In this document: positions 2,553 to 55,622 of the stretch, piece by piece
Position numbering within the stretch: position 1 is the stretch's first letter
Layout of the letters: every line of letters starts with the position of its first letter
Origin: Candidatus Azambacteria bacterium
GTDB taxonomy: Bacteria > Patescibacteriota > Minisyncoccia > UBA10092
Length of the DNA stretch: 64,000 bases
Assembly: GCA_016213445.1 (NCBI GenBank)
Contig: JACRAJ010000001.1
Span: 14,203-78,202, forward strand
Direction: 5' to 3'
Program-made: the position numbers and the translations under genes
The notes under the pieces: model-generated
The model's database searches: none
Told to the model about the DNA's origin: nothing
What the model saw: only the letters and a program-made list of their open reading frames with translations

Positions 2553-3511
2553 TTTAATAATTTTTTATACAATTCCGTCCATCTCGGCAAAATAACTTTC
2601 CAGCCGAAATCCCGTTCGATTCTTTGCCTTGCCGCCCGACCGATATTTTTCCTTAATTCCAAATCGTTCATTAATTTTAACAGCGCGTTCTGATAATCCT
2701 GACGATTTGAAGTTATAAAACCGTTTTTTCCGGAATCGATAAGCTCGCCGACGGCGCCGACTTTATTTGTAACCACCGGCAAGCCCGAAGCCATCGCTTC
2801 CATCACTGCGATCGGCAGATTGTCTTCATGGGAAAAATAAGCGAATATGTCCGAATCGGAAAAATATTTTTGGGGCAAATCGAAACCGAACCATTGAACA
2901 TTCACATTTTTCGGCTTATCAAGAGTGTTTATAAATTTCCTGGTTTCTTCCAGAAGCGGCCCGAAACCGACAATTCGCCAATTTATTTTCCTGTCAAAAT
3001 CTTTGGCCAAATCAAAGATTATTCGGGCCAAATCAATCATTCCCTTGGCTTTTTTCGGAAACCAAAATTTGGTAATGGTTAAAATATTGTAAAAATCCCG
3101 CGATACCAAATCGACATTGGCAAATTTATCTAAATTAATGGCGTTAGGAATAACAATGGCTTTTTCCAGATTTAAAGTTGTTTTCAAAAATTCGGAAGGA
3201 ACCGTTATCGCCGATGCCCGCAATCGGCCGAGCCAATAAAAAAATTTCCAAAATGAACCGTGGATTTTTCCGTGAATGCTTAAAACCATCGGCCTGAAAA
3301 AAACCGAAAAAGCCAGGGGATTCACGGTGTGGATCAATTCCACTCCCGTTCTGAACGGGCTTAAAATTTTATCGCCTATTTTAAAAATATGCTCCGCCCT
3401 GAATTCGGAGTCTTTGTTCAATTCGCCAACCAAATCGGCTCCCCAGCTCCACGGACCGCCCTTTTTGCGCGGCGTAATGACTAAAATCAATTTTTTTTGC
3501 GATTCTTTCAT
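2549..3511 (-). CDS. Glycosyltransferase family 1/4
   Basis: C-terminal EDNLPIAVMEAMASGLPVVTNKVGAVGELIDSGKNGF is the GT1 nucleotide-sugar binding signature. Its start overlaps the upstream gene. Confidence 0.75.
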   Translation of the reverse strand: MKESQKKLILVITPRKKGGPWSWGADLVGELNKDSEFRAEHIFKIGDKILSPFRTGVELIHTVNPLAFSVFFRPMVLSIHGKIHGSFWKFFYWLGRLRASAITVPSEFLKTTLNLEKAIVIPNAINLDKFANVDLVSRDFYNILTITKFWFPKKAKGMIDLARIIFDLAKDFDRKINWRIVGFGPLLEETRKFINTLDKPKNVNVQWFGFDLPQKYFSDSDIFAYFSHEDNLPIAVMEAMASGLPVVTNKVGAVGELIDSGKNGFITSNRQDYQNALLKLMNDLELRKNIGRAARQRIERDFGWKVILPRWTELYKKLLK

Positions 3512-3601
3512 TTATGATATTATGCTATACTATATAACAAATAGAAAATTGCGTCAATTTCATTTTTTGGCTTTATTAAGCCAAAATATAATGAATTTTT
3601 A

Positions 3602-4756
3602 ATGAAAAATAAGAAAAAAATACTGTTTATAATAACCAAATCGGAAATGGGCGGCACCCAGCGTTTTTTATGCGAACTTGCGGCGCATCTAAATCCCGAA
3701 AAGTATGAAATCGCGGTAGCGGCCGGCGGCCATGGCGAACTTTTGGAAAAACTTTACGAAAAAAACATTGAAACGATTAAAATCCGCAACTTTTCAAACG
3801 CGCCGGGAATTAAAAATTTGGCGGTATTTTTTGAAATTTTCCGCCTCATAAAAAAAACTAATCCGGATATTCTTTATCTGTTAAGCTCGGAAGCCGGTTT
3901 TATCGGCTCGATCGCCGGCGGATTATATCGATTTATCGCGCGAAAAAAAATGAAAATTATTTACAGAATCGGCGGCTGGGCGTTTAAAGAACCGCGAAAC
4001 CTTTTTATAAAAAAAATATACTTGTGGGCGGAAAAAATATCCGCGCCGTTCAAAGACATTATCATTACCAATTCCGAATTCGACCGAAAAATTGCCGCTA
4101 AAAATAAAATCGCAATTCCTGAAAAAATACTAACCGTTTACAACGGCATTGATTTGAACGAATTGAAATTTATTCCCAGAGAAACAGCCAGAAAACTTTT
4201 ATTTCGAAGCATCAACCCCATATCGCGGCCGCTTATCGGCACTATCGCCAATCTTTATAAAAATAAAGGTTTGGAATATTTGATTGCGGCCGCAAAAAAA
4301 ATAAAAAATGAAGGAAGAAATTGGTGTTTTATGATAATCGGCGACGGACCGGAAAAAAACAGGCTGGGAAAATTAATAAAAAATTCGGAATTGGAAAATA
4401 CGGTATTTATGGTCGGCGCAATTCCCGACGCTTATCAATATTTAAAGGCATTCGATTTATTTGTTTTGCCATCAATTAAAGAGGGCCAGCCTTGGGCAAT
4501 TTTAGAAGCAATGGCGGCCGCAAGGCCAATCTTGGCAACCAATATCGCCGGCATTCCGGAAACGATTGAAAACGAAAAATCCGGACTCCTGGTTGAACCG
4601 GCCGATTCAAACGCGCTGGCAAATGCCATAGAAAAAATAATGACCCATCCAAGCTTGGCCCAGAAATGCGCCAAAAACGCCCATTTGACGGTTAAAGAAA
4701 AATTCGATTTGGAAACAATGATCGGAAAAAACGAAAAAATTTTTGAAAACGACTGA
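3602..4756 (+). CDS. Glycosyltransferase family 4
   Basis: 384-aa ORF with PSIKEGQPWAILEAMAAARPILATNIAGIPETIENEKSGLLV (EX7E-type GT4 motif). Confidence 0.85.
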   Translation: MKNKKKILFIITKSEMGGTQRFLCELAAHLNPEKYEIAVAAGGHGELLEKLYEKNIETIKIRNFSNAPGIKNLAVFFEIFRLIKKTNPDILYLLSSEAGFIGSIAGGLYRFIARKKMKIIYRIGGWAFKEPRNLFIKKIYLWAEKISAPFKDIIITNSEFDRKIAAKNKIAIPEKILTVYNGIDLNELKFIPRETARKLLFRSINPISRPLIGTIANLYKNKGLEYLIAAAKKIKNEGRNWCFMIIGDGPEKNRLGKLIKNSELENTVFMVGAIPDAYQYLKAFDLFVLPSIKEGQPWAILEAMAAARPILATNIAGIPETIENEKSGLLVEPADSNALANAIEKIMTHPSLAQKCAKNAHLTVKEKFDLETMIGKNEKIFEND

Positions 4757-16362: not shown

Positions 16363-17200
16363 CCCGCACAAATCAATAGGTGTCGGAAACCTATTAACCT
16401 ATTGGCTTATTCCAAAAAAAGATTATTATCTACGGCTGAAAAATCCAAATCATTCACGAAGTCGCAAAAATGTTTTTTGTATGTGGAAGGCTTGCCAAAA
16501 GTGTCCTTCAAAAAATTCCTTTGCATTATCAGAGAAAAATCAGATTTGCCGATGTAATCCGAATGGCTGGACCATTTGTAATTGTCTATAAATTCGATTG
16601 CTCCCTGCGGTTTCCCCACACCCTGGTTCCGCCAATCCGGACAAGATAAACTTAACGGATTCAAATGGATATAAAATGGAATATATGTAAATTGGGATTC
16701 GTTGTCCATAATCACGGATTTGAATTTTCCCTGAAATAACGGACCGACTCTTTGGTGCTTCAAGTTAAAATAGTTAACATACCCACTGCCCAATTTCCTC
16801 ATAAATTCGGTTATCCCATTTTCCGTCCGCTGGCGTAGCATCAAATGATAATGATTGGGCATTAAACAGAAAGCCAATATATCAACCAAAAATTTTCTTT
16901 TGTGTTCGTCATTCCTAATATCCTTTATTCTTTTCTTGGGATTTATAACCAATTTGGTGTCATTAAAAATTATAAGGTCATCAATAAAACGCTCATAATC
17001 GCGATTATCCACAAATAGGTGGCGCTTCTCCACGCCGCGATTATAAACATGATATATATTATCCGAAACTAATTTATCCTTGCGCATATTAGGTCAATAG
17101 GTTTCTAGGTCAATAGGTTTCCGACACCTATTGAATTCTTATTTAAATTAAAATTTTTATCATAAACCCCGCACAAATCAATAGGTGTCGGAAACCTATT
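16363..17200 (-). mobile_element. REPtron: RAYT-type transposase gene bracketed by REP units
   Basis: The 33-nt unit CCCGCACAAATC-AATAGGTGTCGGAAACCTATT is present at 16363-16395 and 17168-17200. An inverted REP lies at 17112-17132 and a partial tandem copy at 17092-17106. Confidence 0.75.
16407..17087 (-). CDS. IS200/Y1-family, REP-associated tyrosine transposase (RAYT-like)
   Basis: HUH motif in CLMPNHYHLMLRQ and the catalytic-Tyr region YIPFYIHLNPL. The 226-aa size and flanking REP hairpins fit a RAYT rather than an IS200 TnpA. Confidence 0.8.
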   Translation of the reverse strand: MRKDKLVSDNIYHVYNRGVEKRHLFVDNRDYERFIDDLIIFNDTKLVINPKKRIKDIRNDEHKRKFLVDILAFCLMPNHYHLMLRQRTENGITEFMRKLGSGYVNYFNLKHQRVGPLFQGKFKSVIMDNESQFTYIPFYIHLNPLSLSCPDWRNQGVGKPQGAIEFIDNYKWSSHSDYIGKSDFSLIMQRNFLKDTFGKPSTYKKHFCDFVNDLDFSAVDNNLFLE

Positions 17201-17232
17201 AAATATTATACTATGAAATGAAAAAACTGTCA

Positions 17233-38401: not shown

Positions 38402-40918
38402 CTACAAAACGATATTTATCAGCCTGCCGGGCACGAATATTATCTTTTTTATCTCCCCGCCCGCGATATGTTTCTTAATCGCATCGCGGGATAAAACCAA
38501 ATTTTCAATCTCAACGCGATCAAGCCTTTTCGATACTCTGACTTTGTCGCGCAACTTTCCGCCAATTTGAATAAGCAGGTCATAATCCCCTTCTTTAATG
38601 AATTTCGGATCGTATTTCGGCCACGACTCCAGGTGTATCGATTTTTTGTTTCCCAAATTGCGCCAAAACTCTTCGGCTAAATGCGGGGCGAAAGGAGCGA
38701 TTAATTTCAAAAAAGTTCGAGCCTCCTCTTTTGAGAGATTTTCTTTTTCCATTTTATTGAATAAAATCATAAGCGCGCTTACGGCCGTATTGAACCTGAA
38801 ATTTTCAATATCTTCCCCCACTTTTTTTATGGTCTGATGCAATAATCTTTGCAGTTCCTGATTTTCAGCATTTGAAAATTGAGAATTGAAAATTGAAAAT
38901 TTAGCGTATATTCTATCCAAAAATCTCTTTATGCCTAAAATGCCGGTCGAACTCCAAGGCCCGCCCTGGCTGTATTCCCCCATAAAACACAGGTACATTC
39001 TTGCCGTATCGGCGCCATATTTTTCAACCAAATCATCGGGATCAACAATATTTCCCCTGGATTTGGACATTTTTTGGCCGTCTGTGCCGAGGATAATCCC
39101 CTGATGGCGCAAAGCCTCAAAAGGCTCGCCAAACTCCAAATAACCGCTATTTTTCAAAGCTTTGACGAAAAATCTTGAATAAAGCAAATGCATCACCGCA
39201 TGCTCGGCGCCGCCGATGTACATGTTAACCGGAAGCCAGGCGTTTAATTTTTTCTTGTCGGCAAACCGTTTTTTATTTTTCGGGTCGGCATAGCGAAGGA
39301 AGTACCAGGAAGAATCGACAAAGGTATCCATAGTGTCGGTTTCTCTTGTCGCCTTTTTTCCGCATTTCGGACATTTGGCGTTTACAAAATTTTTCGCGCG
39401 CGCCAAGGGCGACTTGCCGCCGGCAACTGGTTTGAAATTTTTAAGCGGAGGCAATCTCACCGGAAGGTTTTTTTCGGGCGCCGCAATCCAGCCGGGATTT
39501 TCAAATTCGCCTTTGGAGAATTCATTGTTTCCGGCGTTTGATTTTCCGTTTCTGATTTTGTCCGCGCAATGTTTGCAAAAAACAATCGGAATGGGCGCGC
39601 CCCAATAGCGCTGGCGGGAAACAATCCAATCGCGCATTTTATACTGCGTCGAAAAATCTCCCAAATTTTTTTCTTTCAGCCATTCGGTGATTTTTTTTCT
39701 TCCTTCGGCCGAATTTACTCCCGTAAATTCGCCCGAATTAACAATAAGGCCGCCTTCAACGTAGGGTTTGTTTTCCGGCCATTCCCGCCCCGGATCGATT
39801 ACTTTCACGATTGGCAAATTGAATTTTTTGGCAAATTCAAAATCGCGCTCATCATGCGCCGGCACGGCCATAATGGCTCCCGTTCCGTAATTCATCAAAA
39901 CATAATCGGAAATCCAGATCGGAATTTTTTCTTCATTTGCCGGATTAACGGCGTAAGCGCCGGTGAAAACTCCGGTTTTTTCACGCTCCAAACTTGTTCT
40001 CTCAAGTTCCGTTTTCAAATGAGCATTGGCGACATAATGGCGGATATCCTCTTTTTGTTCTTTCGTCGCCAGCGACTCAACCAGCGGGTGCTCCGGGGCA
40101 ATAACCAAATAGGTCGCTCCGAAAAGCGTGTCCGGCCGGGTGGTAAACACCTCAATATAGTTTTGGGATTTTGGTAATTGGGATTTGTTTAGAAATTGGA
40201 AATTAGAAATTAGAAATTTAACTTTAGCTCCTTCCGACTTGCCAATCCAATTCTTCTGCATTATTTTTGTGCGCTCCGGCCAATTTAATTTATCCAGATC
40301 TGCCAGCAGCTCATCGGCATAATCGGTTATTTTCAGCATCCATTGATCAATTTCTTTTTGAATAACCAAAGTGTCGGGATGGCGCCAACAACGGCCGTCA
40401 ATCACCTGTTCATTGGCCAAAACCGCCTGATCTTTGGGACACCAATTCGCCAGAGTTTTCTTTTTATACGCCAAGCCGGCTTCGTATAATTTTAAAAACA
40501 TCCACTGGGTCCATTTGTAATAATTCGGATCGGCGCTCACAACTTCCCTCGACCAATCGTAAATATTGCCCATGGACTTGAGCTGTTTTCTCATTGCCGA
40601 AATATTTTTATATGTCCAATCGCGAGGATGAATTTTATTTTTAATGGCGGCGTTTTCCGCCGGAAGCCCGAAAGCGTCAAAACCGATGGGGCTTAAAACG
40701 TTAAAACCTTTCATTCTTTTAAAGCGCGCGTAAACATCGGCCGGCGCATAATTGTACCAGTGGCCCATATGAAGATTGCCCGAAGGATACGGGAACATCA
40801 CCAGATGATAAAAATTGTCCTTGTTTTTAACCCGGTCTTTGGTTTTGTATATGCCGGATTTATCCCAGACTTTCTGCCACTTTTTTTCGATTTTTTCCGC
40901 GTTGCGCATTTTTTTCAA
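38402..40918 (-). CDS. leuS: Leucine--tRNA ligase
   Basis: 838 aa with PYPSGNLHMGHWYNY (HIGH) and KMSKSRGN. Full-length LeuRS with a CP1 editing domain. Two AT-heptamer inserts. Confidence 0.97.
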   Translation of the reverse strand: MKKMRNAEKIEKKWQKVWDKSGIYKTKDRVKNKDNFYHLVMFPYPSGNLHMGHWYNYAPADVYARFKRMKGFNVLSPIGFDAFGLPAENAAIKNKIHPRDWTYKNISAMRKQLKSMGNIYDWSREVVSADPNYYKWTQWMFLKLYEAGLAYKKKTLANWCPKDQAVLANEQVIDGRCWRHPDTLVIQKEIDQWMLKITDYADELLADLDKLNWPERTKIMQKNWIGKSEGAKVKFLISNFQFLNKSQLPKSQNYIEVFTTRPDTLFGATYLVIAPEHPLVESLATKEQKEDIRHYVANAHLKTELERTSLEREKTGVFTGAYAVNPANEEKIPIWISDYVLMNYGTGAIMAVPAHDERDFEFAKKFNLPIVKVIDPGREWPENKPYVEGGLIVNSGEFTGVNSAEGRKKITEWLKEKNLGDFSTQYKMRDWIVSRQRYWGAPIPIVFCKHCADKIRNGKSNAGNNEFSKGEFENPGWIAAPEKNLPVRLPPLKNFKPVAGGKSPLARAKNFVNAKCPKCGKKATRETDTMDTFVDSSWYFLRYADPKNKKRFADKKKLNAWLPVNMYIGGAEHAVMHLLYSRFFVKALKNSGYLEFGEPFEALRHQGIILGTDGQKMSKSRGNIVDPDDLVEKYGADTARMYLCFMGEYSQGGPWSSTGILGIKRFLDRIYAKFSIFNSQFSNAENQELQRLLHQTIKKVGEDIENFRFNTAVSALMILFNKMEKENLSKEEARTFLKLIAPFAPHLAEEFWRNLGNKKSIHLESWPKYDPKFIKEGDYDLLIQIGGKLRDKVRVSKRLDRVEIENLVLSRDAIKKHIAGGEIKKIIFVPGRLINIVL
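38871..38902. repeat. AT heptamer tract in leuS (GAAAATT GAGAATT GAAAATT GAAAATT)
   Basis: Translated in frame as KFSIFNSQFSN. Confidence 0.85.
40161..40222. repeat. ~60-bp AT-rich element in leuS (ATTGGGATTTG head plus GGAAATT AGAAATT AGAAATT)
   Basis: Translated in frame as FLISNFQFLNKSQLPKSQNY, directly before the conserved FTTRPDT motif. The same element is intergenic at 24771-24840 and 46321-46385. Confidence 0.85.
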
Positions 40919-41007: not shown

Positions 41008-41850
41008 TTAAAGATTAATTTTAAAAAGCTTTATCGCGTTTTCAGCCGTTCTCTCCGCCGCCGTTTCGAAATCCAAATTTTTCCATTCCGCGATTTTACG
41101 GATAACGAATTCAACAAAATCCGGTTCATTGCGCTTGCCCCTATGGGGAACCGGCGCGGCAAACGGCGAATCCGTTTCGGCAAGAATTCTGTCGATTGGA
41201 ACATATTCAACCAATTCTTTATATTGACCGGCGCCAGCCAGAGGCTGGCCGGCCTTGGGTTGGAACGTTATCGGGCCGGCAAAAGAAATATAAAATCCCA
41301 AATCCAAAAATTTCTTGGCAATTTCTTTCGAGCCACTGAAAAAATGAACGACGCCGCTACTAGCGACACGTGACATGTTACAAGCAATAAGCATGTCTAA
41401 AGCATCTTCATAAGCGTCCGCAGTCCCTGGGGTCGGCCGGCAATGGATTATAAGCGGTTTTCCTAATTCTTTCGCCAATTCGACTTGCTTTACAAAAATC
41501 TCTTTCTGCCTTTCCCTTGTCTTATGTCTCATGTCGCTTGTCGCTCTGTAGTAGTCCAATCCGCACTCGCCTATCGCGATTATTTTCGTATCATAAGCCA
41601 ATTTTTTAAAATCATTCCAATCGGAAAAATCCGCGCCATCATCCTTGGCAACATCGTGAGGGTGAATCCCGGCCGACGCCCAAATCAAATCCGGATATTC
41701 TTCGGCAAGCGCCAGTGCTTTTTGAGAATCTTGCAAATCCGTGCCGACATTTATGATTTTAACGCCGAAATCGCGAAGCTTTTTAATTATTTTTTCGCGG
41801 TCGTCATTAAATTGCGAAAAATGAAGATGGCAATGAGAATCAAATAACAT
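41008..41850 (-). CDS. tatD: TatD-family metal-dependent hydrolase/DNase
   Basis: Start set at MLFDSHCHLHF (41850); the 59 codons upstream in the track ORF overlap metG and a repeat. Carries an in-frame heptamer tract (ATSDMRHKTRE). Confidence 0.85.
   Translation of the reverse strand: MLFDSHCHLHFSQFNDDREKIIKKLRDFGVKIINVGTDLQDSQKALALAEEYPDLIWASAGIHPHDVAKDDGADFSDWNDFKKLAYDTKIIAIGECGLDYYRATSDMRHKTRERQKEIFVKQVELAKELGKPLIIHCRPTPGTADAYEDALDMLIACNMSRVASSGVVHFFSGSKEIAKKFLDLGFYISFAGPITFQPKAGQPLAGAGQYKELVEYVPIDRILAETDSPFAAPVPHRGKRNEPDFVEFVIRKIAEWKNLDFETAAERTAENAIKLFKINL
41515..41549. repeat. GC heptamer tract in tatD
   Basis: CCTTGTC TTATGTC TCATGTC GCTTGTC GCTCTGT. Confidence 0.8.
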
Positions 41851-41896
41851 AAAAAATTCAAAATTAGAAATTTGATATTGCGGACAGAATTTAAAA

Positions 41897-43345
41897 TTAC
41901 CGGAGGCGCGGGAAAAGCGCAATAGATTTTTTACTCTCAACCGCTTCGGCGATTTTATCCGAAGTATCCGGCAAAAACGGCGCAACCAGCTTTCCGATTT
42001 CCGAAACCAGATATAAAAGAGCGCCAACTATTTTTTTGTATTCATCGGAATCCGGACTAAGCGTCCACGGTTTTTTGTCATCGACATATTTGTCGCCGGC
42101 GGCGATAATTCGCCAAATGCCATATAACGCATCGCTGAATTTAAAATCTTTCAGCGACTCGCCGATATTTTTATCCGCATCTGCAATAACGGTTTCAAAA
42201 ATTTTCGGCTCCAAAGAAATATCGGACTTCGCGGCCAGCGTTAAAACGCGGCTCGCTAAATTGCCAAGGCCTTTCGCCAGATCGGCATTATATCTTTCTT
42301 CAAACTTTTCATAAGTGAATTCGCCATCTTCTCCCGAAGGAATTTCACGCAACAAATAATATCGCAAAGCGTCGACTCCGTATTTCCCGATGATTTCAAA
42401 CGGATCGACAAGATTTCCGAGCGATTTGGACATTTTTTCCCCGCCTGCGGTTATAAAACCATGCGCCCATATCGTTTTCGGCAAAGGAAGTTTTGCCGCG
42501 AGAAGCATGCCCGGCCATATTGCGGCATGAAATCTCAAAATATCCTTGCCGATAACGTGAATATCGGCAGGCCAATATTTTTTAAACATGCCGCTTGCCG
42601 CTTGCCGCTTGCCGCTATCTTGGCCGTATCCGAGAGCGGTAATATAATTTGACAGCGCGTCGCACCAAACATATATTGTTTGGCTGTCGTCGCCAGGAAC
42701 GGGAATGCCCCAATTCAGATCTTTGCTTGGCCGGGAAAAACTGACGTCCTCCAATCCTTCATTTATTAAAGACAGAATTTCATTCTTGCGTGAAACGGGA
42801 AAAATTCGCAATTCCTCATTTTCAATTTTCGATTTTATTTCTTCCGAGTATTTTGACAGACGAAAAAAATAATTTTCTTCTTCAATAATTTCCGGCTTGG
42901 TTTTGTGAATGGCACAAACGCCTCCGATCAAGTCTTTTTCGGCAACAAACGCTTCATGCCCGGCGCAGTAAAGCCCGCGATAAGCTTTTTTGTAAATATC
43001 ACCCGAATCAACCAATGCCGACCACAATTTTTGAGCTCCCGGCCAATGCCTTTCTTGATCGGAGGTTCTTATAAAATCATCATTCGAAATATCTAAAATT
43101 TCAGCGAGTTTTTTAAATTTAGAAGAGTTTTCGTCAACCAGTTGTTTTGGAGTTTTCCCCGATTTTTCCGCCGTTCTCGCGATTTTTACGCCATGTTCGT
43201 CGGCGCCGGTTAGAAAAAAAACATCATCGCCTTTGGCGCGATGGCGGCGCGCCAAAACATCGGCTTGAACAAATTCCAAAGCATGGCCGATATGCGGGCC
43301 GGCATTCATGTAAGGTATGGAAGTGGTGATGTAAAACTTGTCCAT
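41897..43345 (-). CDS. metG: Methionine--tRNA ligase (short form, no C-terminal tRNA-binding domain)
   Basis: 482 aa with PYMNAGPHIGHALE (HIGH) and KMSKSLGN. Confidence 0.95.
   Translation of the reverse strand: MDKFYITTSIPYMNAGPHIGHALEFVQADVLARRHRAKGDDVFFLTGADEHGVKIARTAEKSGKTPKQLVDENSSKFKKLAEILDISNDDFIRTSDQERHWPGAQKLWSALVDSGDIYKKAYRGLYCAGHEAFVAEKDLIGGVCAIHKTKPEIIEEENYFFRLSKYSEEIKSKIENEELRIFPVSRKNEILSLINEGLEDVSFSRPSKDLNWGIPVPGDDSQTIYVWCDALSNYITALGYGQDSGKRQAASGMFKKYWPADIHVIGKDILRFHAAIWPGMLLAAKLPLPKTIWAHGFITAGGEKMSKSLGNLVDPFEIIGKYGVDALRYYLLREIPSGEDGEFTYEKFEERYNADLAKGLGNLASRVLTLAAKSDISLEPKIFETVIADADKNIGESLKDFKFSDALYGIWRIIAAGDKYVDDKKPWTLSPDSDEYKKIVGALLYLVSEIGKLVAPFLPDTSDKIAEAVESKKSIALFPRLR
42587..42620. 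repeat. GC heptamer tract in metG (CATGCC + 3x GCTTGCC)
   Basis: Translated in frame as DSGKRQAASGM. Confidence 0.9.
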
Positions 43346-45008: not shown

Positions 45009-46274
45009 CTATATTTCCAATAAATCAACAAACGGTTTTTCATCTTTAAACGGCCCCACAATGGCTAAATTTAATTTTTCCGGCCGGAAAATATCTTGCG
45101 CCGCTTTTAAAACATCGTCGGCGGTTACCGCTTGAATTTTTTTAATCAAATCTTCGGGCTTTATAATTTCTTTTTTCAAAATTTCCTGAAAACAATAAAA
45201 ACTCGCCAATTCGTCCGATGTTTCAATGCTTAAAATCAACCCGCCTTCCATGTGTTCTTTGGCTTTGTTTAGTTCATCTTCGCTTACTTTGATTGTTTTT
45301 ATTTTTCGGTATTCTTCCAATATGGATTTTATTATTTCGTCCGCCCGGCGGTTATCAATGCCGGCGCTGGTCGCCAAATAACCCGTATCGGTTGAAGCGT
45401 CCTCGTTGGTCCGCACGTAATAAGCCGCGCCCATTTTGTCGCGAAGCAAATCGAAAAGTCGGGAAGACATTCCCCCGCCCAAAATGGTAGCCAAAACTTC
45501 GGCGGCAAAGCGCCTGTCATCCCAAATATCATAAGATCTGGCGCCCAAAATAATATGGGTTTGGTCGGTTTTTTTATAAAACAATTTCATTGCCGGTTTT
45601 TCCTGCGATTCTTTTGCCGGAATTTTGTCTTTTCCCTTTGAATCGCTGATTGACCCGAAAAGAACTTTTATTTTTTCCACCACATCGTCCGAATCTATCA
45701 TTCCCGCAACCGCAACAACGGTGTTTGAGGCCGTATAGTGGTCTTTGTGATACTTTACAAAATCTTCGCGATTAAGCTTGTTGATGATTTCTTTTTTTCC
45801 GGCGGTATCCCATCCGGCCGGCTGATCGCCGTATAAAAGATCTATCCAAACATCGCCAACCTTTCTCGACGGCATATCTTCGTACATATTTATTTCTTCG
45901 ATAATCACGCCTCTTTCTTTATTAATTTCTTCTTGGTCGAAATTGGGATTCAAAGTGATATCGGAAATAATATCCAACAGCAAATCCTGATGCCGGCCAT
46001 CGGCTTTGGCATAATAACCGGTGTATTCTTGGCTGGTAAAAGCGTTATATTGGCCGCCGATTCTATCAAGCGGCTCGGCGATGGCAAGCGGCGTCGGCCT
46101 TTTTTTGGTGCCCTTAAAAGTCATGTGCTCCAAAAAATGGGAAATGCCGTTTATGTCTTTTGTTTCATATTTGGAGCCAGTTGCCACAAGCGTTAAAACC
46201 GTCACCGTTTTGGTGTTCGCCATTGGTATGGTGATGATTCTTAGGCCGTTGGGCAATGTTGTTTTTTTGTACAT
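45009..46274 (-). CDS. M16 family zinc peptidase (pitrilysin-like)
   Basis: HxxEH motif in GISHFLEHMTFKGT; 421 aa. Confidence 0.85.
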   Translation of the reverse strand: MYKKTTLPNGLRIITIPMANTKTVTVLTLVATGSKYETKDINGISHFLEHMTFKGTKKRPTPLAIAEPLDRIGGQYNAFTSQEYTGYYAKADGRHQDLLLDIISDITLNPNFDQEEINKERGVIIEEINMYEDMPSRKVGDVWIDLLYGDQPAGWDTAGKKEIINKLNREDFVKYHKDHYTASNTVVAVAGMIDSDDVVEKIKVLFGSISDSKGKDKIPAKESQEKPAMKLFYKKTDQTHIILGARSYDIWDDRRFAAEVLATILGGGMSSRLFDLLRDKMGAAYYVRTNEDASTDTGYLATSAGIDNRRADEIIKSILEEYRKIKTIKVSEDELNKAKEHMEGGLILSIETSDELASFYCFQEILKKEIIKPEDLIKKIQAVTADDVLKAAQDIFRPEKLNLAIVGPFKDEKPFVDLLEI

Positions 46275-46385
46275 GGTCTCAAAAATTGACCTAATTATTT
46301 TAATTGATCTAAAAATTTAAAAATAGAAATTATAAATTGGGATTTGATTAGAAATTAGAATAATTAGAAATTAGGTTAATTATCT
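46275..46385. repeat. AT-rich repeat element in the glyQS-peptidase spacer
   Basis: AAATTGGGATTTGATTAGAAATTAGAATAATTAGAAATTAGGTTAATTA, plus an inverted AATTGACCTAAT. Confidence 0.8.
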
Positions 46386-47698
46386 AATTTACTTTCAAAA
46401 TATTCCCGCAATTCCGCAATCGCCACTCTCTCCTGTTTCATCGTGTCCCTGTCGCGAACCGTGATTTTTTTGTCTTCCAGCGATTCAAAATCAACAGTAA
46501 TGCACCAAGGCGTGCCGATTTCATCCTGCGAATAATACCGCTTGCCGATATTGCCCCTGTCGTCCCACGCAACCGTAAAATATTTCCGCAAGTCATTATA
46601 AATTTTTCGCGCCGATTCCACAAGTTCCGGCTTGTTCGCCAGAAGCGGAAAAACGGCAATTTTATATGGAGCCAATTTTGGATTGAATTTTAAAACTGTT
46701 CTGTTATTTTCTTCGCTATAAGCATCGATTATTAAAAATAAAAGTGACCGATCAACTCCGGCGGACGTTTCGATATCCCAAGGGATATAATTTTCGCCTG
46801 TTTCGGAATCGTGATACGACATATTCTGGCCTGAAAATTTTTGATGGCGGGATAAATCCCAATCACCCCGATGATGAATGCCCATAAATTCCTGCCATCC
46901 CCACGGGCTGTTATATTCAATATCGGTCGCCGCTTTGGCATAGTGCGCTCGCTCATCGTCTGCATGATCGCGAAAACGCAAATTTTCTTTTTTAATTCCC
47001 AGAGAAACGTACCAATCCATTCGATTTTTTTTCCAATATTCAAACCATTTTTCGCCTTCTAATTTTTCTGGTTTTATATAATACTGAACTTCCATCTGTT
47101 CAAACTCTCGCGAACGGAAAGTGAAATTACCCGGTGTAATTTCGTTTCTAAACGCTTTGCCGATTTGAGCAATGCCAAAAGGAATTTTTACGCGAGTCGA
47201 ATCAACAACATTTTTAAAATTAACGTGGACACCATTCGTAATTTCCCCCCTAAGATAAATTTCGGATTGTTCGCCCTCAACCACGCCCAAATACGCTTTA
47301 ACGAGCAGATTAAATGTTTTTGGTTCGGTCCATTCAACTTTTTGGTCTTTATGTTCTTTTTCGTGACTCTTTATTTCTTCCATCTTGTCAGCGCGAAAAC
47401 GCTGATGGCAAATTTTGCATTCAACCAGCGGATCGGAAAACGATTCCACATGCCCGCTGGCTTCCCATGCTTTAGGATTCATCATAATAGCTGTATCTAT
47501 ACCCACAACGTCATCGCGAATTTGCACCATCTCCTTCCACCAAAGGTCTTTGATGTTCTTTTTCAGAAGCGAACCGGCAGGGCCGTAGTCCCAAGTGCCA
47601 GCCAGCCCTCCGTAAATTTCCGAACCCGGAAAAACAAAACCCCGCCTTTTGCAAAGCGAAACTATTTTTTCCATTGCATTCGTTTTATTTTCATTCAT
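46376..47698 (-). CDS. glyQS: Glycine--tRNA ligase (class II, dimeric GlyQS type)
   Basis: MEKIVSLCKRRGFVFPGSEIYGGLAGTWDYGPAG is the hallmark N-terminus. Start placed at MNENK (47698). Confidence 0.93.
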   Translation of the reverse strand: MNENKTNAMEKIVSLCKRRGFVFPGSEIYGGLAGTWDYGPAGSLLKKNIKDLWWKEMVQIRDDVVGIDTAIMMNPKAWEASGHVESFSDPLVECKICHQRFRADKMEEIKSHEKEHKDQKVEWTEPKTFNLLVKAYLGVVEGEQSEIYLRGEITNGVHVNFKNVVDSTRVKIPFGIAQIGKAFRNEITPGNFTFRSREFEQMEVQYYIKPEKLEGEKWFEYWKKNRMDWYVSLGIKKENLRFRDHADDERAHYAKAATDIEYNSPWGWQEFMGIHHRGDWDLSRHQKFSGQNMSYHDSETGENYIPWDIETSAGVDRSLLFLIIDAYSEENNRTVLKFNPKLAPYKIAVFPLLANKPELVESARKIYNDLRKYFTVAWDDRGNIGKRYYSQDEIGTPWCITVDFESLEDKKITVRDRDTMKQERVAIAELREYFESKLDN

Positions 47699-47735
47699 GG
47701 ATTCTCGGTAAAATAACACAAACGGCAAAAAAGCT

Positions 47736-50040: not shown

Positions 50041-50112
50041 CATGCGGCATGTGACAAGCGACAGGTTTTTGGAATTTATTTTCCATGTCGCCTGTCGCTT
50101 GTCGCCTGTCGC
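50041..50112. repeat. Inverted pair of GC heptamer tracts at the ileS-recO junction
   Basis: GACAAGC GACAGG (plus orientation, 50053-50065) opposes CCATGTC GCCTGTC GCTTGTC GCCTGTC (50083-50110). A 13-bp stem can form between 50053-50065 and 50091-50103. Confidence 0.85.
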
Positions 50113-53054
50113 TATTTAACTTTAACGATTCCAATCCAAATATTCCTGTTTTCGATTTTAAAATGGCGGTCAACCAACAAGCCGCCTTTGATATTTCCGG
50201 CAAATTCAAGCATTTTGGCGCCGACTTCGGCATTTAAAATATTTTGCCATTTTTGAACAACTCTTTTTAAAGCGTCATCATCGATTTTAAAATAAATTCT
50301 TATCGAGTCTTTCGGCGTCAGCGATCCGTCTTTCCTCATTCCCTGAATTTGCCGCGCCAGTTCTCTTATCATCCCCTCCTCTTTCAATTCAACGGTGATC
50401 TTCGTATCCAGCTCAAAATCTTTTTTAATATTTTTATCGAAAACAATTTCTTTAACGTTAATTTCGTCTTTAATTAAATTTAAAATTTCTTCATTTTTTG
50501 AAAATTGAAAATTAGAAATTGAAAATTTGAGCGAAGCGAGCGGTTGTCTCACCTTTATTCCGGCTTCCGCCCTTAGCGCCAATCCTTTAGCGGCGATTTC
50601 TCTCGCGAGATTCATCTGCTTCTCGAGTTTTTTATTGATCAGCTTAGCGTTTAATTTCGGATAGTCGGCCAAATGAACGCTTTCCTTATTGTCCAATTCT
50701 CGCCAAATATGCTCTGCCAAAAAAGGCGTGAACGGCGCGGAAAGTTTTGCCGTTTCTTCCAAAACCGTTTTCAAAACCGCCGCCGCGCTTTCGCCGTCGT
50801 CGCCGGAAAAACGTTTTCTCGATCGCCTCAACCACCAGCGCGACAAATCATCGATAAAATCGTCAATCGGCCGCGCCGCTTGAGTCACCTCATATTTTTC
50901 TAAATTGCAACGGACAATTTTTATAGTCTGGTTCAGTCGCGACAAAATCCACTTGTCCAACAAACTTGCCGCTTGTCGCTTGCCGCTTGCCGCTTTTACA
51001 GCATATGTTTTATAAAAAACTAAAACATTCGAAAGCGTCAAAACAAACCGCCGCAACCGATCTTCAACGTCGCGAACGGTAAAACGTTTCGATTCGCCCG
51101 GCGGATTGATGGTGAAAAAATACCACCTCAAAGCGTCAACGCCGTATTTGTCGATTATTTCCCACGGATCGACAATATTGCCTCTGGATTTCGACATCTT
51201 TTCGCCTTTTTCATCCAAAATATGGCCCAAGCAAATCACGTTTTTATACGCCGGACCTTTGCCCATTAAAGCGCCGACGGCATGAAGCGTGTAAAACCAG
51301 CCGCGGGTTTGGTCGATGGCTTCGGAAATAAAATCGGCCGGATAATTAAATTTATCGCTTGCCGCCTGCCGCCTGCCGCCTGCCGCTTGATGGGCCTGGG
51401 CAAACGGCATCGCGCCCGAATCAAACCAGACATCGATTACATCTTTAATCCTTTCCATTTTTCCCGAACACTTTTGGCATTTCAAAACCAAATCATCAAC
51501 ATAGGGCCGATGGAGATCCAATTCGCCTTCATTATTATACGGCCAGTTGTGTTCTCCTTTTTTAAGTTTTTTCGCGGAAAATTTATCCAGCTCCCCAAGC
51601 GAGCCGACAATGCGCTCGCTTTTGCATTTTTCGCATTGCCAAACCGGAAGAGGCGTTCCCCAATATCGTTCCCGGGAAATCGCCCAATCTTTTATTTCGT
51701 TCAGCCACTCGCCGAATCGTCCGTTTTTTATGTGCGAAGGAATCCAATTTATTTTTTTATTGTTGGCGACAAGTTTTTTCTTCAGCTTTTCCATTCTTAT
51801 AAACCAAGAGGATTTGGCGTAATATAAAAGCGCGCTGCGGCAGCGCCAGCAAAAAGGATAATCGTGTTCGTATTTTTTTGACTTAACGAAAGCGCCTGAT
51901 CGCTTCAAATAATCGATTATCAAATTTTCCGCTTCCGAAGATTTGACTTTCAAACCTTTCAAACCTGCGCCGAAATCATCGATGAATTTTCCTTCCAAAT
52001 CGACGGTGTGATATTTGGGAAGCCCCGTTTTCGCGCCGAGATTGAAATCGTCAACGCCGTACATCGGCGCAATATGAACAATGCCGGTCCCTTCCTTGGT
52101 ATTTACAAAATCGGCATTATAAATCTTATGGGAATTTTTCGAATTATTTTTTGAAACGTCAAAAAGCGGTTCGTATTTCAAACCGATAAGATTTTTTCCC
52201 GCGGTGAAAATCGATTTCTTTTTCGGCTCTTCCATATTAATGTCATCCTTGAGGCTCTCGGCGAAAATAAAAATATCGCCGTTATCAAGCTCCAAAATTT
52301 CATAATTTACCTTGGCGCCCGCCGCCAAAGCGGCATTTCCCGGCAGTGTCCACGGCGTTGTCGTCCACGATAAAACATAAGTAGCGCCGGTTGTTGCAAA
52401 ATCGCCGCCTTTGGTTTTTAGTTTCTGCCCCGGCTTTAACTTGAACTTCACGTAAATCGAATTTTCGGAAACTTTTTCATAACCTTGGGCCACTTCATGG
52501 CTTGAAAGCGCCGTGCCGCAGCGCGGGCAGTAAGGCACAACTTTAAAATCTTTATAGAGAAGTTTTTTCTTCCAAACTTGCGACAAAATATGCCACAAAG
52601 ATTCGATATAATGCGGTTCATAGGTGATATATGGATTTTTCAAATCCAGCCAAAAACCGACGCGCTCGGTTAATTTATCCCACTCTTCTTTATACTTCCA
52701 AACGGTTTCCTTGGCTTTCTCATTGAATTTTCCAACGCCGTATTTTTCAATGTCTTTTTTATTTTTAAGCTTCAATTCCTGTTCAACCTGAAGCTCTATC
52801 GGAAGGCCGTGCGTGTCCCATCCCGCTCTGCGGCCGACGTAAAAACCGGCCATTGTTTTGTAGCGGCAAATAAGGTCTTTGTAGACCCTCGTTAAAACAT
52901 GGTGAATTCCGGGCCGGCCGTTGGCCGACGGCGGCCCTTCGTAAAAAACAAATTTCTTCGCTTTGGCGCGATTTTTCAGGCTCTTTTCAAAAATCTGTTC
53001 CCGCTTCCAATATTCCAGAATTTTTTCTTCAGTTTTTGGATTGAACAATTCCAT
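50112..53054 (-). CDS. ileS: Isoleucine--tRNA ligase
   Basis: 980 aa with PSANGRPGIHHVL (HIGH) and KMSKSRGN. Two GC-heptamer inserts and one AT-heptamer insert. Confidence 0.97.
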   Translation of the reverse strand: MELFNPKTEEKILEYWKREQIFEKSLKNRAKAKKFVFYEGPPSANGRPGIHHVLTRVYKDLICRYKTMAGFYVGRRAGWDTHGLPIELQVEQELKLKNKKDIEKYGVGKFNEKAKETVWKYKEEWDKLTERVGFWLDLKNPYITYEPHYIESLWHILSQVWKKKLLYKDFKVVPYCPRCGTALSSHEVAQGYEKVSENSIYVKFKLKPGQKLKTKGGDFATTGATYVLSWTTTPWTLPGNAALAAGAKVNYEILELDNGDIFIFAESLKDDINMEEPKKKSIFTAGKNLIGLKYEPLFDVSKNNSKNSHKIYNADFVNTKEGTGIVHIAPMYGVDDFNLGAKTGLPKYHTVDLEGKFIDDFGAGLKGLKVKSSEAENLIIDYLKRSGAFVKSKKYEHDYPFCWRCRSALLYYAKSSWFIRMEKLKKKLVANNKKINWIPSHIKNGRFGEWLNEIKDWAISRERYWGTPLPVWQCEKCKSERIVGSLGELDKFSAKKLKKGEHNWPYNNEGELDLHRPYVDDLVLKCQKCSGKMERIKDVIDVWFDSGAMPFAQAHQAAGGRRQAASDKFNYPADFISEAIDQTRGWFYTLHAVGALMGKGPAYKNVICLGHILDEKGEKMSKSRGNIVDPWEIIDKYGVDALRWYFFTINPPGESKRFTVRDVEDRLRRFVLTLSNVLVFYKTYAVKAASGKRQAASLLDKWILSRLNQTIKIVRCNLEKYEVTQAARPIDDFIDDLSRWWLRRSRKRFSGDDGESAAAVLKTVLEETAKLSAPFTPFLAEHIWRELDNKESVHLADYPKLNAKLINKKLEKQMNLAREIAAKGLALRAEAGIKVRQPLASLKFSISNFQFSKNEEILNLIKDEINVKEIVFDKNIKKDFELDTKITVELKEEGMIRELARQIQGMRKDGSLTPKDSIRIYFKIDDDALKRVVQKWQNILNAEVGAKMLEFAGNIKGGLLVDRHFKIENRNIWIGIVKVK
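50496..50530. repeat. AT heptamer tract in ileS (GAAAATT GAAAATT AGAAATT GAAAATT)
   Basis: Translated in frame as KFSISNFQFSK. Confidence 0.85.
50963..50998. repeat. GC heptamer tract in ileS
   Basis: AACTTGCC GCTTGTC GCTTGCC GCTTGCC; translated as AASGKRQAASL. Confidence 0.9.
51357..51391. repeat. GC heptamer tract in ileS
   Basis: GCTTGCC + 3x GCCTGCC + GCTTGAT; translated as QAAGGRRQAASDK. Confidence 0.9.
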
Positions 53055-53058
53055 ATTT

Positions 53059-54717
53059 TTACATCTTATCAGGAGCTTTGATGCCCATCAAGCTTAAAAC
53101 GTTCGCCAAAACGATTTTGGCTGACAAAACCAACGCCAGACGCGCCGATGTCAGATTTTTATCTTCCGTAATCACTCGTTCCTTTTCGTAAAAATTATGG
53201 AACTCCCGCGCCAGGTCAAGAGCATAGCGCGGCAAACGATGCACTTCATAATTTTCCGCAATCTCCGCCAATAACTCCGGATATTCAACTAATTTTCTAA
53301 TCAAATCCAGCTCGCTCTTTTCTTTCAATATTTCTATATTTGCCGCATGTCGCTTGTCGCTTGTCGCTTGTCGCAAAATGCCGGAAATTCTCGCGTGCGC
53401 GTATTGAACGTAATAAACCGGGTTTTTTTGCGAGCGTTCTTTCGCCAAGGCGATGTCGAAATCCATGTGAGTATTCGGCGAATACATCAAAAAGAAAAAT
53501 CGCGCGGCGTCAAGTCCAACCTCATTAACCAATTCTTCAAGCGTGACAAAAGTTCCGGCGCGTTTGGAAATCTTAAAGCTTTCGCCGCCTTTTACGAGGC
53601 GCACCAATTGAGTGATGATAATTTCCAAATTATCTTCCGGAATGCCCAAAGCCTTGAGCGCCGCTAAAAGCCGCGGCGCGTAGCCGTGATGATCGGCGCC
53701 CCAAATATCAATTGCCTTGTCGAATTTCCTGATTTTAAATTTGTCAAAATGATAAAGAATGTCCGACAAAAAATAAGTTTCCGAACCGTCCTTTTTTATC
53801 AAAACTCTGTCCTCGCTGTCGCCAAGGCTTGATGTTTTCATCCAGGTGGCGCCGTCTTTTTCATAAACAAACCGGCCATCGATTAATTCCCCCATTACTT
53901 CTTCATATATTCCTTGCCGCTTGCCGCTTGCCGCTTGCCGCTTGTCCGCGTAGAGGGTTTTTTCAGAAAACCAAACGTCGAATTTTATTCCCAGCCGTTT
54001 TATCGCCGGCTTGATATATGTTTTTAAAATCAATTCAACCGCTTTTTGACCGGCTTCTCCAACATTCAATTTTTTATCTATTTTCTCCGCCAGTTCATTA
54101 ACATATTCCCCGCGATATAAATTTTCCTCCATGTCGCATGTCGCATGTCGCATGTCGCTTTGCGCCGATTTAATCGACCGCCCTAAATTTAAAACCTGCT
54201 CGCCCCTGTCATTAATATAATACTCGCGCGCGACCTTGTTTCCCTGTGTTTCTAAAACATTTGCCAGCGCATCGCCGTAAAATCCGCCGCGGCCATTGCC
54301 GATAGTTAATGGCCCCGTGGGATTGGCCGAAATAAATTCAACCTGAATCTTTCTTCCGCCGCCGTTTTTGGAAAACCCATATTTATTCTTTCCGCCAAAG
54401 GCGGATCCGCCTTTGGCGGACAAAATTTCTTCCAACTGCCGAAACAAATATTCCGGCGACAGAAAAAAATTTATAAAACCGTTTTTATTTTCGATTTTTG
54501 AAAAATCGAGAACGTTTTGTTTTTTCAATTCGGCGACCAAATTTTCAGCTATCTCTTGCGGCGATTTTTTGAGAAATTTTCCGAGCAAAAAAGCGGCGTT
54601 GGCGGTATAATCGCCATGTTCTTTATTTTCCGGAATTTTAACCGAAATATCGCCCTTGAAATCGGGGGTTAACTTCCGGATAATGCCATAAAGATGCGTT
54701 TTTACAAGCTCTTTCAT
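53059..54717 (-). CDS. argS: Arginine--tRNA ligase
   Basis: 552 aa with EFISANPTGPLTIGNGRGG and a C-terminal DALR anticodon-binding domain. Three heptamer inserts and one palindrome insert. Confidence 0.95.
   Translation of the reverse strand: MKELVKTHLYGIIRKLTPDFKGDISVKIPENKEHGDYTANAAFLLGKFLKKSPQEIAENLVAELKKQNVLDFSKIENKNGFINFFLSPEYLFRQLEEILSAKGGSAFGGKNKYGFSKNGGGRKIQVEFISANPTGPLTIGNGRGGFYGDALANVLETQGNKVAREYYINDRGEQVLNLGRSIKSAQSDMRHATCDMEENLYRGEYVNELAEKIDKKLNVGEAGQKAVELILKTYIKPAIKRLGIKFDVWFSEKTLYADKRQAASGKRQGIYEEVMGELIDGRFVYEKDGATWMKTSSLGDSEDRVLIKKDGSETYFLSDILYHFDKFKIRKFDKAIDIWGADHHGYAPRLLAALKALGIPEDNLEIIITQLVRLVKGGESFKISKRAGTFVTLEELVNEVGLDAARFFFLMYSPNTHMDFDIALAKERSQKNPVYYVQYAHARISGILRQATSDKRHAANIEILKEKSELDLIRKLVEYPELLAEIAENYEVHRLPRYALDLAREFHNFYEKERVITEDKNLTSARLALVLSAKIVLANVLSLMGIKAPDKM
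53345..53379. repeat. GC heptamer tract in argS
   Basis: GCATGTC + 3x GCTTGTC; translated as RQATSDKRHAA. Confidence 0.9.
53911..53946. repeat. GC heptamer tract in argS
   Basis: TCCTTGCC + 3x GCTTGCC + GCTTGTC; translated as ADKRQAASGKRQG. Confidence 0.9.
54129..54163. repeat. GC heptamer tract in argS (GCATGTC variant)
   Basis: CCATGTC + 3x GCATGTC; translated as QSDMRHATCDME. Confidence 0.9.
54392..54419. repeat. 28-bp perfect palindrome CCGCCAAAGGCGGATCCGCCTTTGGCGG in argS
   Basis: Identical to its own reverse complement; translated in frame as SAKGGSAFGGK. A near-identical copy lies at 1260-1287. Confidence 0.95.
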
Positions 54718-54775: not shown

Positions 54776-55222
54776 ATGGCGATATTCGCGGAAAACAGAA
54801 AAGCTCATTTTGATTATGAAATTCTCGAGACTTTCGAGGCGGGGTTGGTTTTGTCCGGAGCCGAAGTAAAATCAATTAAAAACGGCCGGATGAACATCGC
54901 GGGATCTTACGTTAATTTCCACAATGGCGAATTATTTTTAACCGGCGCTTTTATCGCGCCCTACCAGCCGAAAAACCAGCCCGCCGATTACGACCCGAAC
55001 CGCTCAAGAAAATTATTGCTTCGCAAAAAAGAAATCGCTTACTTAACGGGAAAAGTAAAGGTTAAGGGCTTGACTTTAACCCCCTTAAAAGTGTATAATA
55101 AAGGCCGAAAGATTAAACTGGAATTCGCGGTGGCACGCGGCAAAAAACGATACGATAAAAGAAGCGTCATTTCAAAAAGAGAGGCAGCAAGAAAAATAGA
55201 GCGCGAATTAAAAAATTTTTAA
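54776..55222 (+). CDS. smpB: SsrA-binding protein
   Basis: 148 aa with NRKAHFDYEILE...GAEVKSIK...KKRYDKR, typical of SmpB. A tmRNA gene starts 2 nt after the stop. Confidence 0.95.
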   Translation: MAIFAENRKAHFDYEILETFEAGLVLSGAEVKSIKNGRMNIAGSYVNFHNGELFLTGAFIAPYQPKNQPADYDPNRSRKLLLRKKEIAYLTGKVKVKGLTLTPLKVYNKGRKIKLEFAVARGKKRYDKRSVISKREAARKIERELKNF

Positions 55223-55223
55223 C

Positions 55224-55614
55224 GGGGATGCCGGGCTTCGATAGAATTTAAAAATTAAATACGCAGGCCGAGGACGTCTCGTAACCTCGAAATAAAATCC
55301 TCGAGACAAGGCAAAAATAACTGCCAAAACAAATTTAACTCCCGCTTTCGCTTTCGCTTAAGCAGGTTTTACCCCGTTGGATATTTTATCTGACGGGGCA
55401 TCGGACGCTTAATGTCTAATAGGGCGAACCCGGTGTCAACCATTAGGCTTTAACCCGTTGATTTCTTCGCTCCGGGTGGAACTTACAGAAGAAAAAGAGA
55501 ATTTTCCGTTTTGATTGTTTCAAGGAAAATTTTCTAAAAAACCAAACAATCTAAGCCTGTAGCAGCGTTTAATTATTCAAATTCTAGATGCGAGTTCAAC
55601 TCTCGCCATCTCCA
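55224..55614 (+). ncRNA. ssrA: tmRNA (one-piece)
   Basis: 5' GGGGATG pairs with 3' CATCTCC-A (G3:U70). T arm GCGAG-TTCAACT-CTCGC. The tag ORF ends ...GCC AAA ACA AAT TTA ACT CCC GCT TTC GCT TTC GCT TAA (stop 55359-55361), giving (AKIT)AKTNLTPAFAFA. Confidence 0.9.
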
Positions 55615-55622
55615 CTTTGTAA

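Follow-up and report, generated by a model that had tools for sequence, protein, structure and literature searches.

Palindromic repeats found both between and within genes have been described from Rickettsia. These Rickettsia palindromic elements (RPEs) are reported to be ~105–150 bp long, dispersed, and present in frame in unrelated genes at positions compatible with the protein fold (Ogata et al., 2000; PMC10969869; PMC3184786). A comparable element is found in a 64-kb stretch of DNA (hereafter the window) from contig JACRAJ010000001.1 of Candidatus Azambacteria bacterium, where it occupies two intergenic spacers and a ~60-nt segment of leuS, the gene for leucyl-tRNA synthetase (LeuRS). The leuS segment is probably a translated, one-armed copy of a palindromic repeat dispersed in the candidate phyla radiation (CPR, Patescibacteria).

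The resemblance to RPEs appears to be functional rather than familial, and as an analogy it is a good one. Both are palindromic repeats of ~100–150 bp in small genomes, dispersed between genes and also found in frame in unrelated proteins, including essential ones, at fold-compatible positions, and both are without a known transposase. They are alike by behaviour, and their hosts are Patescibacteria on the one hand and Rickettsia on the other; membership of the RPEs is not claimed because the host is Candidatus Azambacteria. The CPR element is built of 7–9-nt AT-rich units with TAA in all frames, so that coding copies are rare (~2–5%, vs. nearly half in certain RPE families) and depend on a change that removes the stop. 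Its copy in leuS is half an element that encodes ~20 residues, and the family is kept across classes or phyla rather than within one genus. The original prediction, made from the letters of the window, had likened the element to RPEs, and this likeness is borne out by the palindromic family, the in-frame copy in leuS, a further in-frame copy in a membrane protein, and the existence of homologues without the insert.

[quoted passage not shown] REPs are GC-rich hairpins of ~35 bp, whereas the CPR element is AT-rich and, at >100 nt, 3–4 times longer; no association was seen between it and the Y1 transposase gene of the window. MITEs are defined by a target-site duplication and an autonomous parent; for the CPR element, the single site that could be compared shows a duplication of 2 nt at most, and no such parent was found.

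Heptanucleotide tandem repeats of the short tandemly repeated repetitive (STRR) type were reportedly described from cyanobacteria by Mazel and colleagues in 1990. As generally understood, STRRs also consist of tandem 7-nt units, are a few copies long and are spread through the genome. The host phylum differs, as do the units (AATTTCT and AATTTTC in the present case), and the CPR arrays also lie in frame inside essential genes and form the arms of a larger palindrome; the likeness is confined to the 7-nt period. The DNA uptake sequences (USS/DUS) of Pasteurellaceae and Neisseriaceae are 9–12 nt long and occur about once per kb. Like the CPR element, they are clade-wide motifs, which often follow genes in inverted pairs and in some cases are translated where a protein tolerates them, but the head motif of the CPR element occurs only 3 times in 64 kb.

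Three copies of one element in the window

The exact 11-mer ATTGGGATTTG is found on the plus strand of the window at 24781, 40177 and 46336 and at no other site, a count of 3 vs. 0.15 expected by shuffling (0/100 shuffles reach 3). All three copies are followed on the plus strand by TTAGAAATT-type units, in agreement with the shared head and unit pattern originally noted at these sites. When one mismatch is allowed, the count in the window is 7 vs. 3.45 expected, which is not significant; the signal therefore lies in the exact copies and their common flanks. On the gene strand, the block common to the three copies reads CTAATTTCTAATT..TCYAATTTCTAAWCAAATCCCAAT. A profile hidden Markov model of 75 positions was built from 94 arms of other genomes, with none from the window. 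An nhmmer search of the window with this profile returned exactly three significant matches, which are the same three sites:

40163–40230, minus strand: leuS copy, a left arm of AATTTCT heptamers plus the apex AAACAAATCCCAATTACCAAAATCCCAA (E = 6e-14, profile positions 6–73 of 75)
46275–46382, minus strand: copy in the spacer between glyQS and an M16 peptidase gene, with arm and apex at 46327–46382 (nhmmer match 46360–46327, E = 6e-7)
24702–24837, minus strand: copy in the rpoB–rpoC spacer, a complete palindrome with left arm and apex at 24769–24832 and right arm at ~24707–24772 (E = 9e-5 for the left arm)

The right arm of the rpoB–rpoC copy also gives weak matches on the plus strand. The three sites are supported as members of one family, which is widespread in the intergenic spacers of Patescibacteria. 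The earlier proposal of a single element with two non-coding copies and one coding copy is thus upheld by a profile made from other genomes. Tandem Repeats Finder (TRF) reports period 7 at 40189–40218, 38872–38901, 24708–24771 and 46347–46374.

The predicted RNA fold of the rpoB–rpoC spacer is an extended hairpin with imperfect pairing (−27 kcal/mol, z = −4.47), which 0/200 shuffles equal. RNA folding gave no significant hairpin for the glyQS–M16 copy (z = −0.54), which is effectively one-armed, and no structure for the leuS copy (z = +0.99); on these values, a structured-RNA reading of the two was dropped. The rpoB stop adjoins an arm of the rpoB–rpoC element, while the glyQS stop codon (46376–46378) lies inside the first unit of the other spacer element. 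In the relatives L005–L007, glyQS and the M16 peptidase gene overlap (ATGTATAA). The spacer of AT-heptamer sequence between them, 101 nt in the window and 112 nt in relative L008, is therefore an insertion, which starts ACCTAATT and finishes AATTAGGT.

A palindromic repeat family of the Patescibacteria

The 19-mer TTTCTAAWYAAATCCCAAT, common to the leuS and glyQS-spacer copies, was scanned against one genome per GTDB species and matched at least 119 genome stretches vs. ~17 estimated by chance. In about 95 of these matches, which represent many classes of the CPR, the CTAATT arms are conserved. Beyond the 19-mer, they share an upstream arm AAATTTCTAATTTCTAATnnCTAA and a downstream GACCAAA, and among those listed the usual next part, after a short loop, is an inverse arm of type CATTGGTCATTGATTAGAAATTAGGTCAATTAGAAATT. 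By their record labels, the hosts among the matches listed are Levy-, Davies-, Woese-, Curtiss-, Roizman-, Moran-, Falkow-, Portnoy-, Nealson-, Lipton-, Kerfeld-, Buchanan-, Doudna-, Taylor-, Terry- and Kuenenbacteria, Saccharibacteria, Berkelbacteria, Kazan, Torokbacteria, unclassified Patescibacteria, and a few metagenome-assembled genomes labelled as other phyla. Armless matches (for example in Prevotella, Oceanobacillus and Arcicella) probably make up the share expected by chance. Matches on phage contigs were likewise set aside as chance (8 matches to the 19-mer, 0 with CTAATT arms).

Judged from these matches, the element is an AT-rich, imperfectly palindromic repeat of ~110–150 nt that is common in the intergenic spacers of Patescibacteria. 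An arm of 7–9-nt CTAATTN units, usually AATTTCT, leads into a non-repetitive apex, AAWYAAATCCCAAT(GACCAAA). In ~2/3 of the copies it is completed by an inverse arm of NAATTAG units, the two arms being inverse complements and hence terminal inverted repeats. Folding of 91 family members gave a median z of −2.7, and at least 20 left-arm bases pair with a downstream partner in 68%, leaving ~1/3 effectively one-armed. The span of clear two-armed copies is 93–200 nt (median 130). Pairing by the left-arm profile gave only 14 perfect left/right pairs because right arms are usually without the head motif, and folding is the better test. The left arm is G-poor, with 7% G and 75% A+T.

Family copies adjoin genes without a gap, and their own TAA triplets often terminate the upstream gene. 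The stop of an upstream same-strand open reading frame (ORF) lies ≤31 nt before the 19-mer in 36/62 cases, often at 7, 14 or 21–24 nt, and therefore at one of the TAA triplets of the element. Where the upstream ORF is divergent, its start is 23–35 nt away in 15/28 cases. Most copies have stops in all frames and are intergenic. At gathering thresholds, Rfam places no family on any copy and detects only 16S rRNA, tmRNA and tRNAs. In full-text searches of the literature, neither the motif nor any heptanucleotide repeats of Patescibacteria or palindromic repeats of the CPR were found to be described. In the public assemblies L010, L011 and L114, runs of N (scaffold gaps) lie directly beside the element, which suggests that the repeat breaks short-read assemblies.

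The in-frame copy in LeuRS

The leuS copy consists of one arm and the apex. Its codons are AAA TTT CTA ATT TCT AAT TTC CAA TTT CTA AAC AAA TCC CAA TTA CCA AAA TCC CAA AAC, which translate to KFLISNFQFLNKSQLPKSQN, ~20 residues directly ahead of YIEVFTTRPDT. There are 3 G in the 68 nt of the copy. The 24 nt upstream of the 19-mer match the family consensus at 23/24 positions, and the single mismatch (T to C) converts the sole in-frame stop, TAA, to CAA. An intein, an intron and translational bypass were considered and rejected, as the segment is 20 codons long, in frame, stop-free and without splicing motifs.

Compared with the LeuRS of Thermus thermophilus (1H3N/2V0C), the net gain is 11 residues, with a clean gap between ILFPVEGK and EVRIPVFTTRPDT; it is also 11 compared with the shortest relatives, and only 7–9 compared with the nearest ones. 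The gain is smaller than the ~20 residues encoded because part of the element replaces native hairpin residues. The original prediction of ~18 residues added before FTTRPDT was thus correct in position and too large in size. Among 88 homologues in which both flanking motifs were matched, the loop is most often 17 residues long, vs. 28 here, so that homologues without the insert do exist.

In an AlphaFold2 model of LeuRS (mean pLDDT, the per-residue confidence score, 82), the insert is placed between strands 224–234 and 251–256. Residues 238–248 have pLDDT <50; the model has just one other such stretch, a shorter one, and the tip is where its confidence is lowest. This low-confidence hairpin tip fits an insert that would form the exposed, flexible end of the β-hairpin leading into the connective peptide 1 (CP1) editing domain.

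A second protein with the element in frame

In L044 6653–8000 (Kerfeldbacteria), both arms of the element are read through in a polytopic membrane protein, as ...KLIISNSQFLNKSQFINSKILEIRNWSLEF... (ISNSQFLNKSQ...LEIRNWSLEF). For the left arm, the reading frame is that of the LeuRS copy. Related inserts are found in the homologues P0123, P0124, P0126 and P0132, which with P0121 are the proteins that have both arms in frame. Most homologues lack the element, and in ~20 of them the flanking helices are joined directly. The protein has no Pfam match, and a homologue search was used instead.

Distribution and conservation of the LeuRS insert

The insert is found at the identical LeuRS position in L001/L002 (P0029), L003/L004 (P0022) and L113, which together with the window makes four lineages. 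It is thus not unique to this genome. The would-be TAA codon is CAA, GAA, AAA and AAA in the four lineages, with C, G, A and A as first base. L113 originates from the Moranbacteria-labelled genome PFCG01, which also has an intergenic copy (L037). No intergenic copy is present on the L001 and L003 contigs, but these are only 16 and 5 kb long. In a rough neighbour-joining tree of LeuRS, the carriers are polyphyletic: the window groups with L008, whose insert is a shortened, decayed version, L001 and L003 form a pair of their own, and L113 is the most distant in the set (53% identity). Identities to the window are as follows:

L001 and L003, nucleotide identity: insert 0.90 and 0.93, gene mean 0.74
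L001 and L003, third codon positions: insert 18/20 and 17/20, gene-wide ~0.5
L113, nucleotide identity: insert 43/45, gene-wide 0.59
L113, third codon positions: insert 15/15, gene-wide 0.40

The insert is the best-conserved nucleotide stretch of leuS, and in the comparison with L113 it ranks top of 724 windows. Two readings fit this conservation, namely repeated copying from a conserved donor family and constraint on the nucleotides themselves.

The second of these readings leads to a tentative alternative, which can coexist with the copying of a repeat. The element would be a cis-acting site for a CPR-conserved factor, and the leuS copy would be kept by nucleotide selection. Rho or another RNA-binding protein loading on the G-poor arm, an mRNA 3′-end hairpin, or a DNA-binding site are possible, though rather doubtful, forms of such a signal. 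In addition to the identities listed above, this explanation is favoured by the sole freely varying base of the insert, which is the one where T would make a stop, by a sequence kept across many CPR classes, by copies that adjoin stop and start codons, and by a left arm with so little G. Simple scans of the two spacers for sigma-70 promoters and intrinsic terminators gave only background, however, and the element has no Rfam family, lacks a pairing arm in 1/3 of its copies and would have no obvious purpose halfway through leuS. The conservation would also be explained if a conserved donor family had been copied recurrently. In its widest form, which is on balance unlikely, the element would be more than selfish DNA, namely a cis-acting Patescibacteria signal for a conserved factor, such as a recombinase or a termination or RNA-binding protein that acts on the G-poor arm. 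Heptamer arrays would be written into tolerant positions, loops of essential enzymes among them, by a dedicated process that uses a 7-nt ruler, and the leuS copy would be held by nucleotide selection together with peptide tolerance.

Period-7 repeats at the LeuRS loop

The same LeuRS loop is a hot spot for short repeats and contains a period-7 array in every relative examined, each with its own unit. The repeats at this position are:

L005: (ATGTCAC)n, peptide VVCHMSHVTC
L006: a pair of GC hairpins TCCGCCAAAGGCGGA/ACCGCCTCTGGCGGA, peptide SAKGGTASGGQ
L007: AATTTTC repeats enclosing GC hairpins
L128: (AAATCTC)n
L129: (AAATTTC)n
L130: (NAGATAC/NAAATAC)n, with no added length

In many Parcubacteria, a loop of the base length (17) is of ISN/IFN type. 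A second heptamer array in leuS, (AATTTTC)4 at 38872–38901 on the minus strand (TRF period 7, 4.3 copies), is in frame and encodes KFSIFNSQFSN. In the model, it lies in a loop between helices 656–672 and 684–702, at the start of the anticodon-binding domain, and relatives have other heptamer units at this site. Of the tandem periods in the window, period 7 alone is enriched, with 8 strict runs vs. 0 in Markov shuffles (~19 per 100 kb).

These arrays, and the single arm in leuS, agree with a hairpin that is a hot spot of local slippage, and the likeness of the insert to the intergenic copies would then be a convergence of AT-rich heptamers. Such an origin is improbable for the insert in the window. 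Although it is no simple heptamer repeat, the apex AAACAAATCCCAATTACCAAAATCC is common to the ~95 intergenic palindromes among the matches listed, and the arm profile matches the leuS copy at E = 6e-14. Convergent slippage is also not expected to leave leuS genes of 59% nucleotide identity with 43/45 nt of the insert in common. An assembly artefact, in which a repeat-induced chimera placed an intergenic repeat into leuS, could be imagined for a dispersed repeat that adjoins scaffold gaps (L010, L011, L114), but is rejected as highly implausible because four independent assemblies (the window, L001/L002, L003/L004 and L113) from different projects and assemblers agree on the in-frame insert, each with an intact ORF and lineage-specific substitutions.

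Origin of the leuS copy

The reading with the best support takes the leuS segment as a half copy of the element that has been domesticated, being tolerated at a flexible hairpin tip after losing its one in-frame stop. It is carried by the homology of the three copies to the family, the frame and the removal of the stop, the insertion relative to homologues, and the location in a loop. An arm and apex would have been copied into the tip of the β-hairpin before the CP1 editing domain, either by insertion or through template switching or gene conversion guided by microhomology, with an intergenic copy as donor. The native hairpin codons are AT-rich and heptamer-like in this clade and could supply the microhomology for template switching. 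Template switching or gene conversion from an intergenic copy would explain the one-armed copy, its recurrence at one site and its fresh-looking nucleotides. The copy may have survived through the change of its sole in-frame TAA to a sense codon and through a position at which 11 extra residues make a flexible exposed loop that would leave the enzyme undisturbed. The family itself may consist chiefly of repeat DNA that is selfish or neutral, comparable in this to RPEs, REPs or MITEs.

Several observations weigh against the domesticated repeat copy. The leuS copy has no right arm and is not a complete element, and the translation of the insert into protein is presumed from sequence. Coding copies are rare (~2–5/95). 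The 19-mer TTTCTAAWYAAATCCCAAT used for retrieval was derived from the window itself. A profile of the 40 upstream nt alone scores the leuS copy at E = 0.11, too weak to count on its own, so that the repetitive arm adds little information independently. Neutral selfish DNA is not predicted to show nucleotide conservation as extreme as that of the leuS copy, nor a family sequence conserved across phyla. At the single site available both empty and filled (glyQS–M16), any target duplication is at most a 2-nt ‘AT’, and no mobilising enzyme is linked to the element. No autonomous parent element with a transposase is found in the window, where the sole transposase-like gene, Y1_Tnp at 16407–17087, is flanked by a different hairpin family.

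Other repeats in the window

The Y1_Tnp (IS200-like transposase) ORF at 16407–17087 on the minus strand (226 aa, Pfam 31.6 bits) is flanked by AATAGGTGTCGGAAACCTATT hairpins, which away from this gene occur as inverted doublets 68–69 nt apart. The gene and its hairpins look like a RAYT with REPIN-like repeats, a family distinct from the AT-rich element. The positions of the AATAGGTGTCGGAAACCTATT hairpins are:

16371–16400, 17108–17137 and 17176–17205: around the Y1_Tnp gene
6774, 11827/11895, 20958/21027 and 30198: elsewhere, with 20958/21027 just upstream of the 16S rRNA gene

Paired GC hairpins of a further type, TCCGCCnnnGGCGGA, lie within ORFs for a methyltransferase, a TPR protein, a giant S74 protein, tatD and argS, and similar pairs encode SAKGGTASGGQ in the LeuRS loop of L006:

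1259–1297, 31488–31526, 36264–36302, 41234–41272 and 54391–54429: paired GC hairpins

GC-richer in-frame arrays of period 7, (GCGACAA)n, (GCGGCAA)n and (GCGACAT)n, are found in essential genes and encode peptides such as ATSDKRQAT, SGKRQAASG and SDMRHATCDM:

27277–27303: in rpoB
42589–42616: in metG
50965–50995 and 51360–51386: in ileS
53348–53374, 53913–53944 and 54130–54158: in argS
50086–50112: just upstream of the ileS start

In methionyl-tRNA synthetase, (AGCGGCA)4 occurs in the window alone and adds 6 aa. Isoleucyl-tRNA synthetase has 7 extra aa at one site, and another of its sites is a hot spot in multiple lineages; the metG array of +6 aa and the ileS array of +7 aa are absent from relatives. 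One argS array adds 11 aa relative to the arginyl-tRNA synthetase 3FNR. Further AT-rich heptamer arrays, (AATTTTC)n and (ATTAAAA)n, are found in both orientations, some of them in spacers:

50498–50527: in ileS, in frame (KFSISNFQFSK)
28230–28252 and 28310–28341: upstream of rpoB
41844–41872: further array

Host and gene setting

The LeuRS is a 100% match to an NCBI protein of Candidatus Azambacteria bacterium from a 280-kb contig, and the host is therefore placed in the Parcubacteria, within the CPR. Nearly all genes of the window are carried by the minus strand. The identities first proposed for rpoC, rpoB, leuS, the M16 peptidase gene and glyQS are correct by Pfam, which also supports metG, ileS and argS:

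21093–24701, minus strand: rpoC
24838–28221, minus strand: rpoB
38402–40918, minus strand: leuS (tRNA-synt_1, tRNA-synt_1_2 (editing domain) and Anticodon_1)
41897–43345: metG
45009–46274, minus strand: M16 peptidase gene
46376–47728, minus strand: glyQS
50112–53054: ileS
53059–54717: argS

The database LeuRS protein (P0001) has the ATG at 40909 as its start and a length of 835 aa. A 16S rRNA gene is found at 19254–20749 on the minus strand, with no 23S rRNA gene in the window, and the ORFs listed within it are spurious. The tmRNA gene (55224–55617, plus strand) lies directly behind smpB (54776–55222, plus strand). A PolX-type DNA polymerase with pol beta thumb, HHH and PHP domains is encoded at 56970–58703 on the minus strand; gap-filling polymerases of this type could have a bearing on the origin of short templated insertions. 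In the syntenic relative L005, a bAvd and reverse-transcriptase pair (a diversity-generating retroelement) is found at 2883–4290, between the gene for a DUF11 protein and glyQS, and is absent from the window.

Significance

CPR genomes are held to be streamlined, and hardly any study has been devoted to their non-coding DNA. A family of repeats that spans many CPR classes would offer a handle on gene-boundary signals in this huge uncultured group. For binning and genome finishing, it matters through the assemblies that the repeat seems to break. The copies in LeuRS and in the membrane protein would represent a second, independent case of RPE-like protein remodelling through palindromic repeats. 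Remodelling of this kind may help to account for the many lineage-specific low-complexity inserts in CPR proteins, which hamper annotation, alignment and structure prediction.

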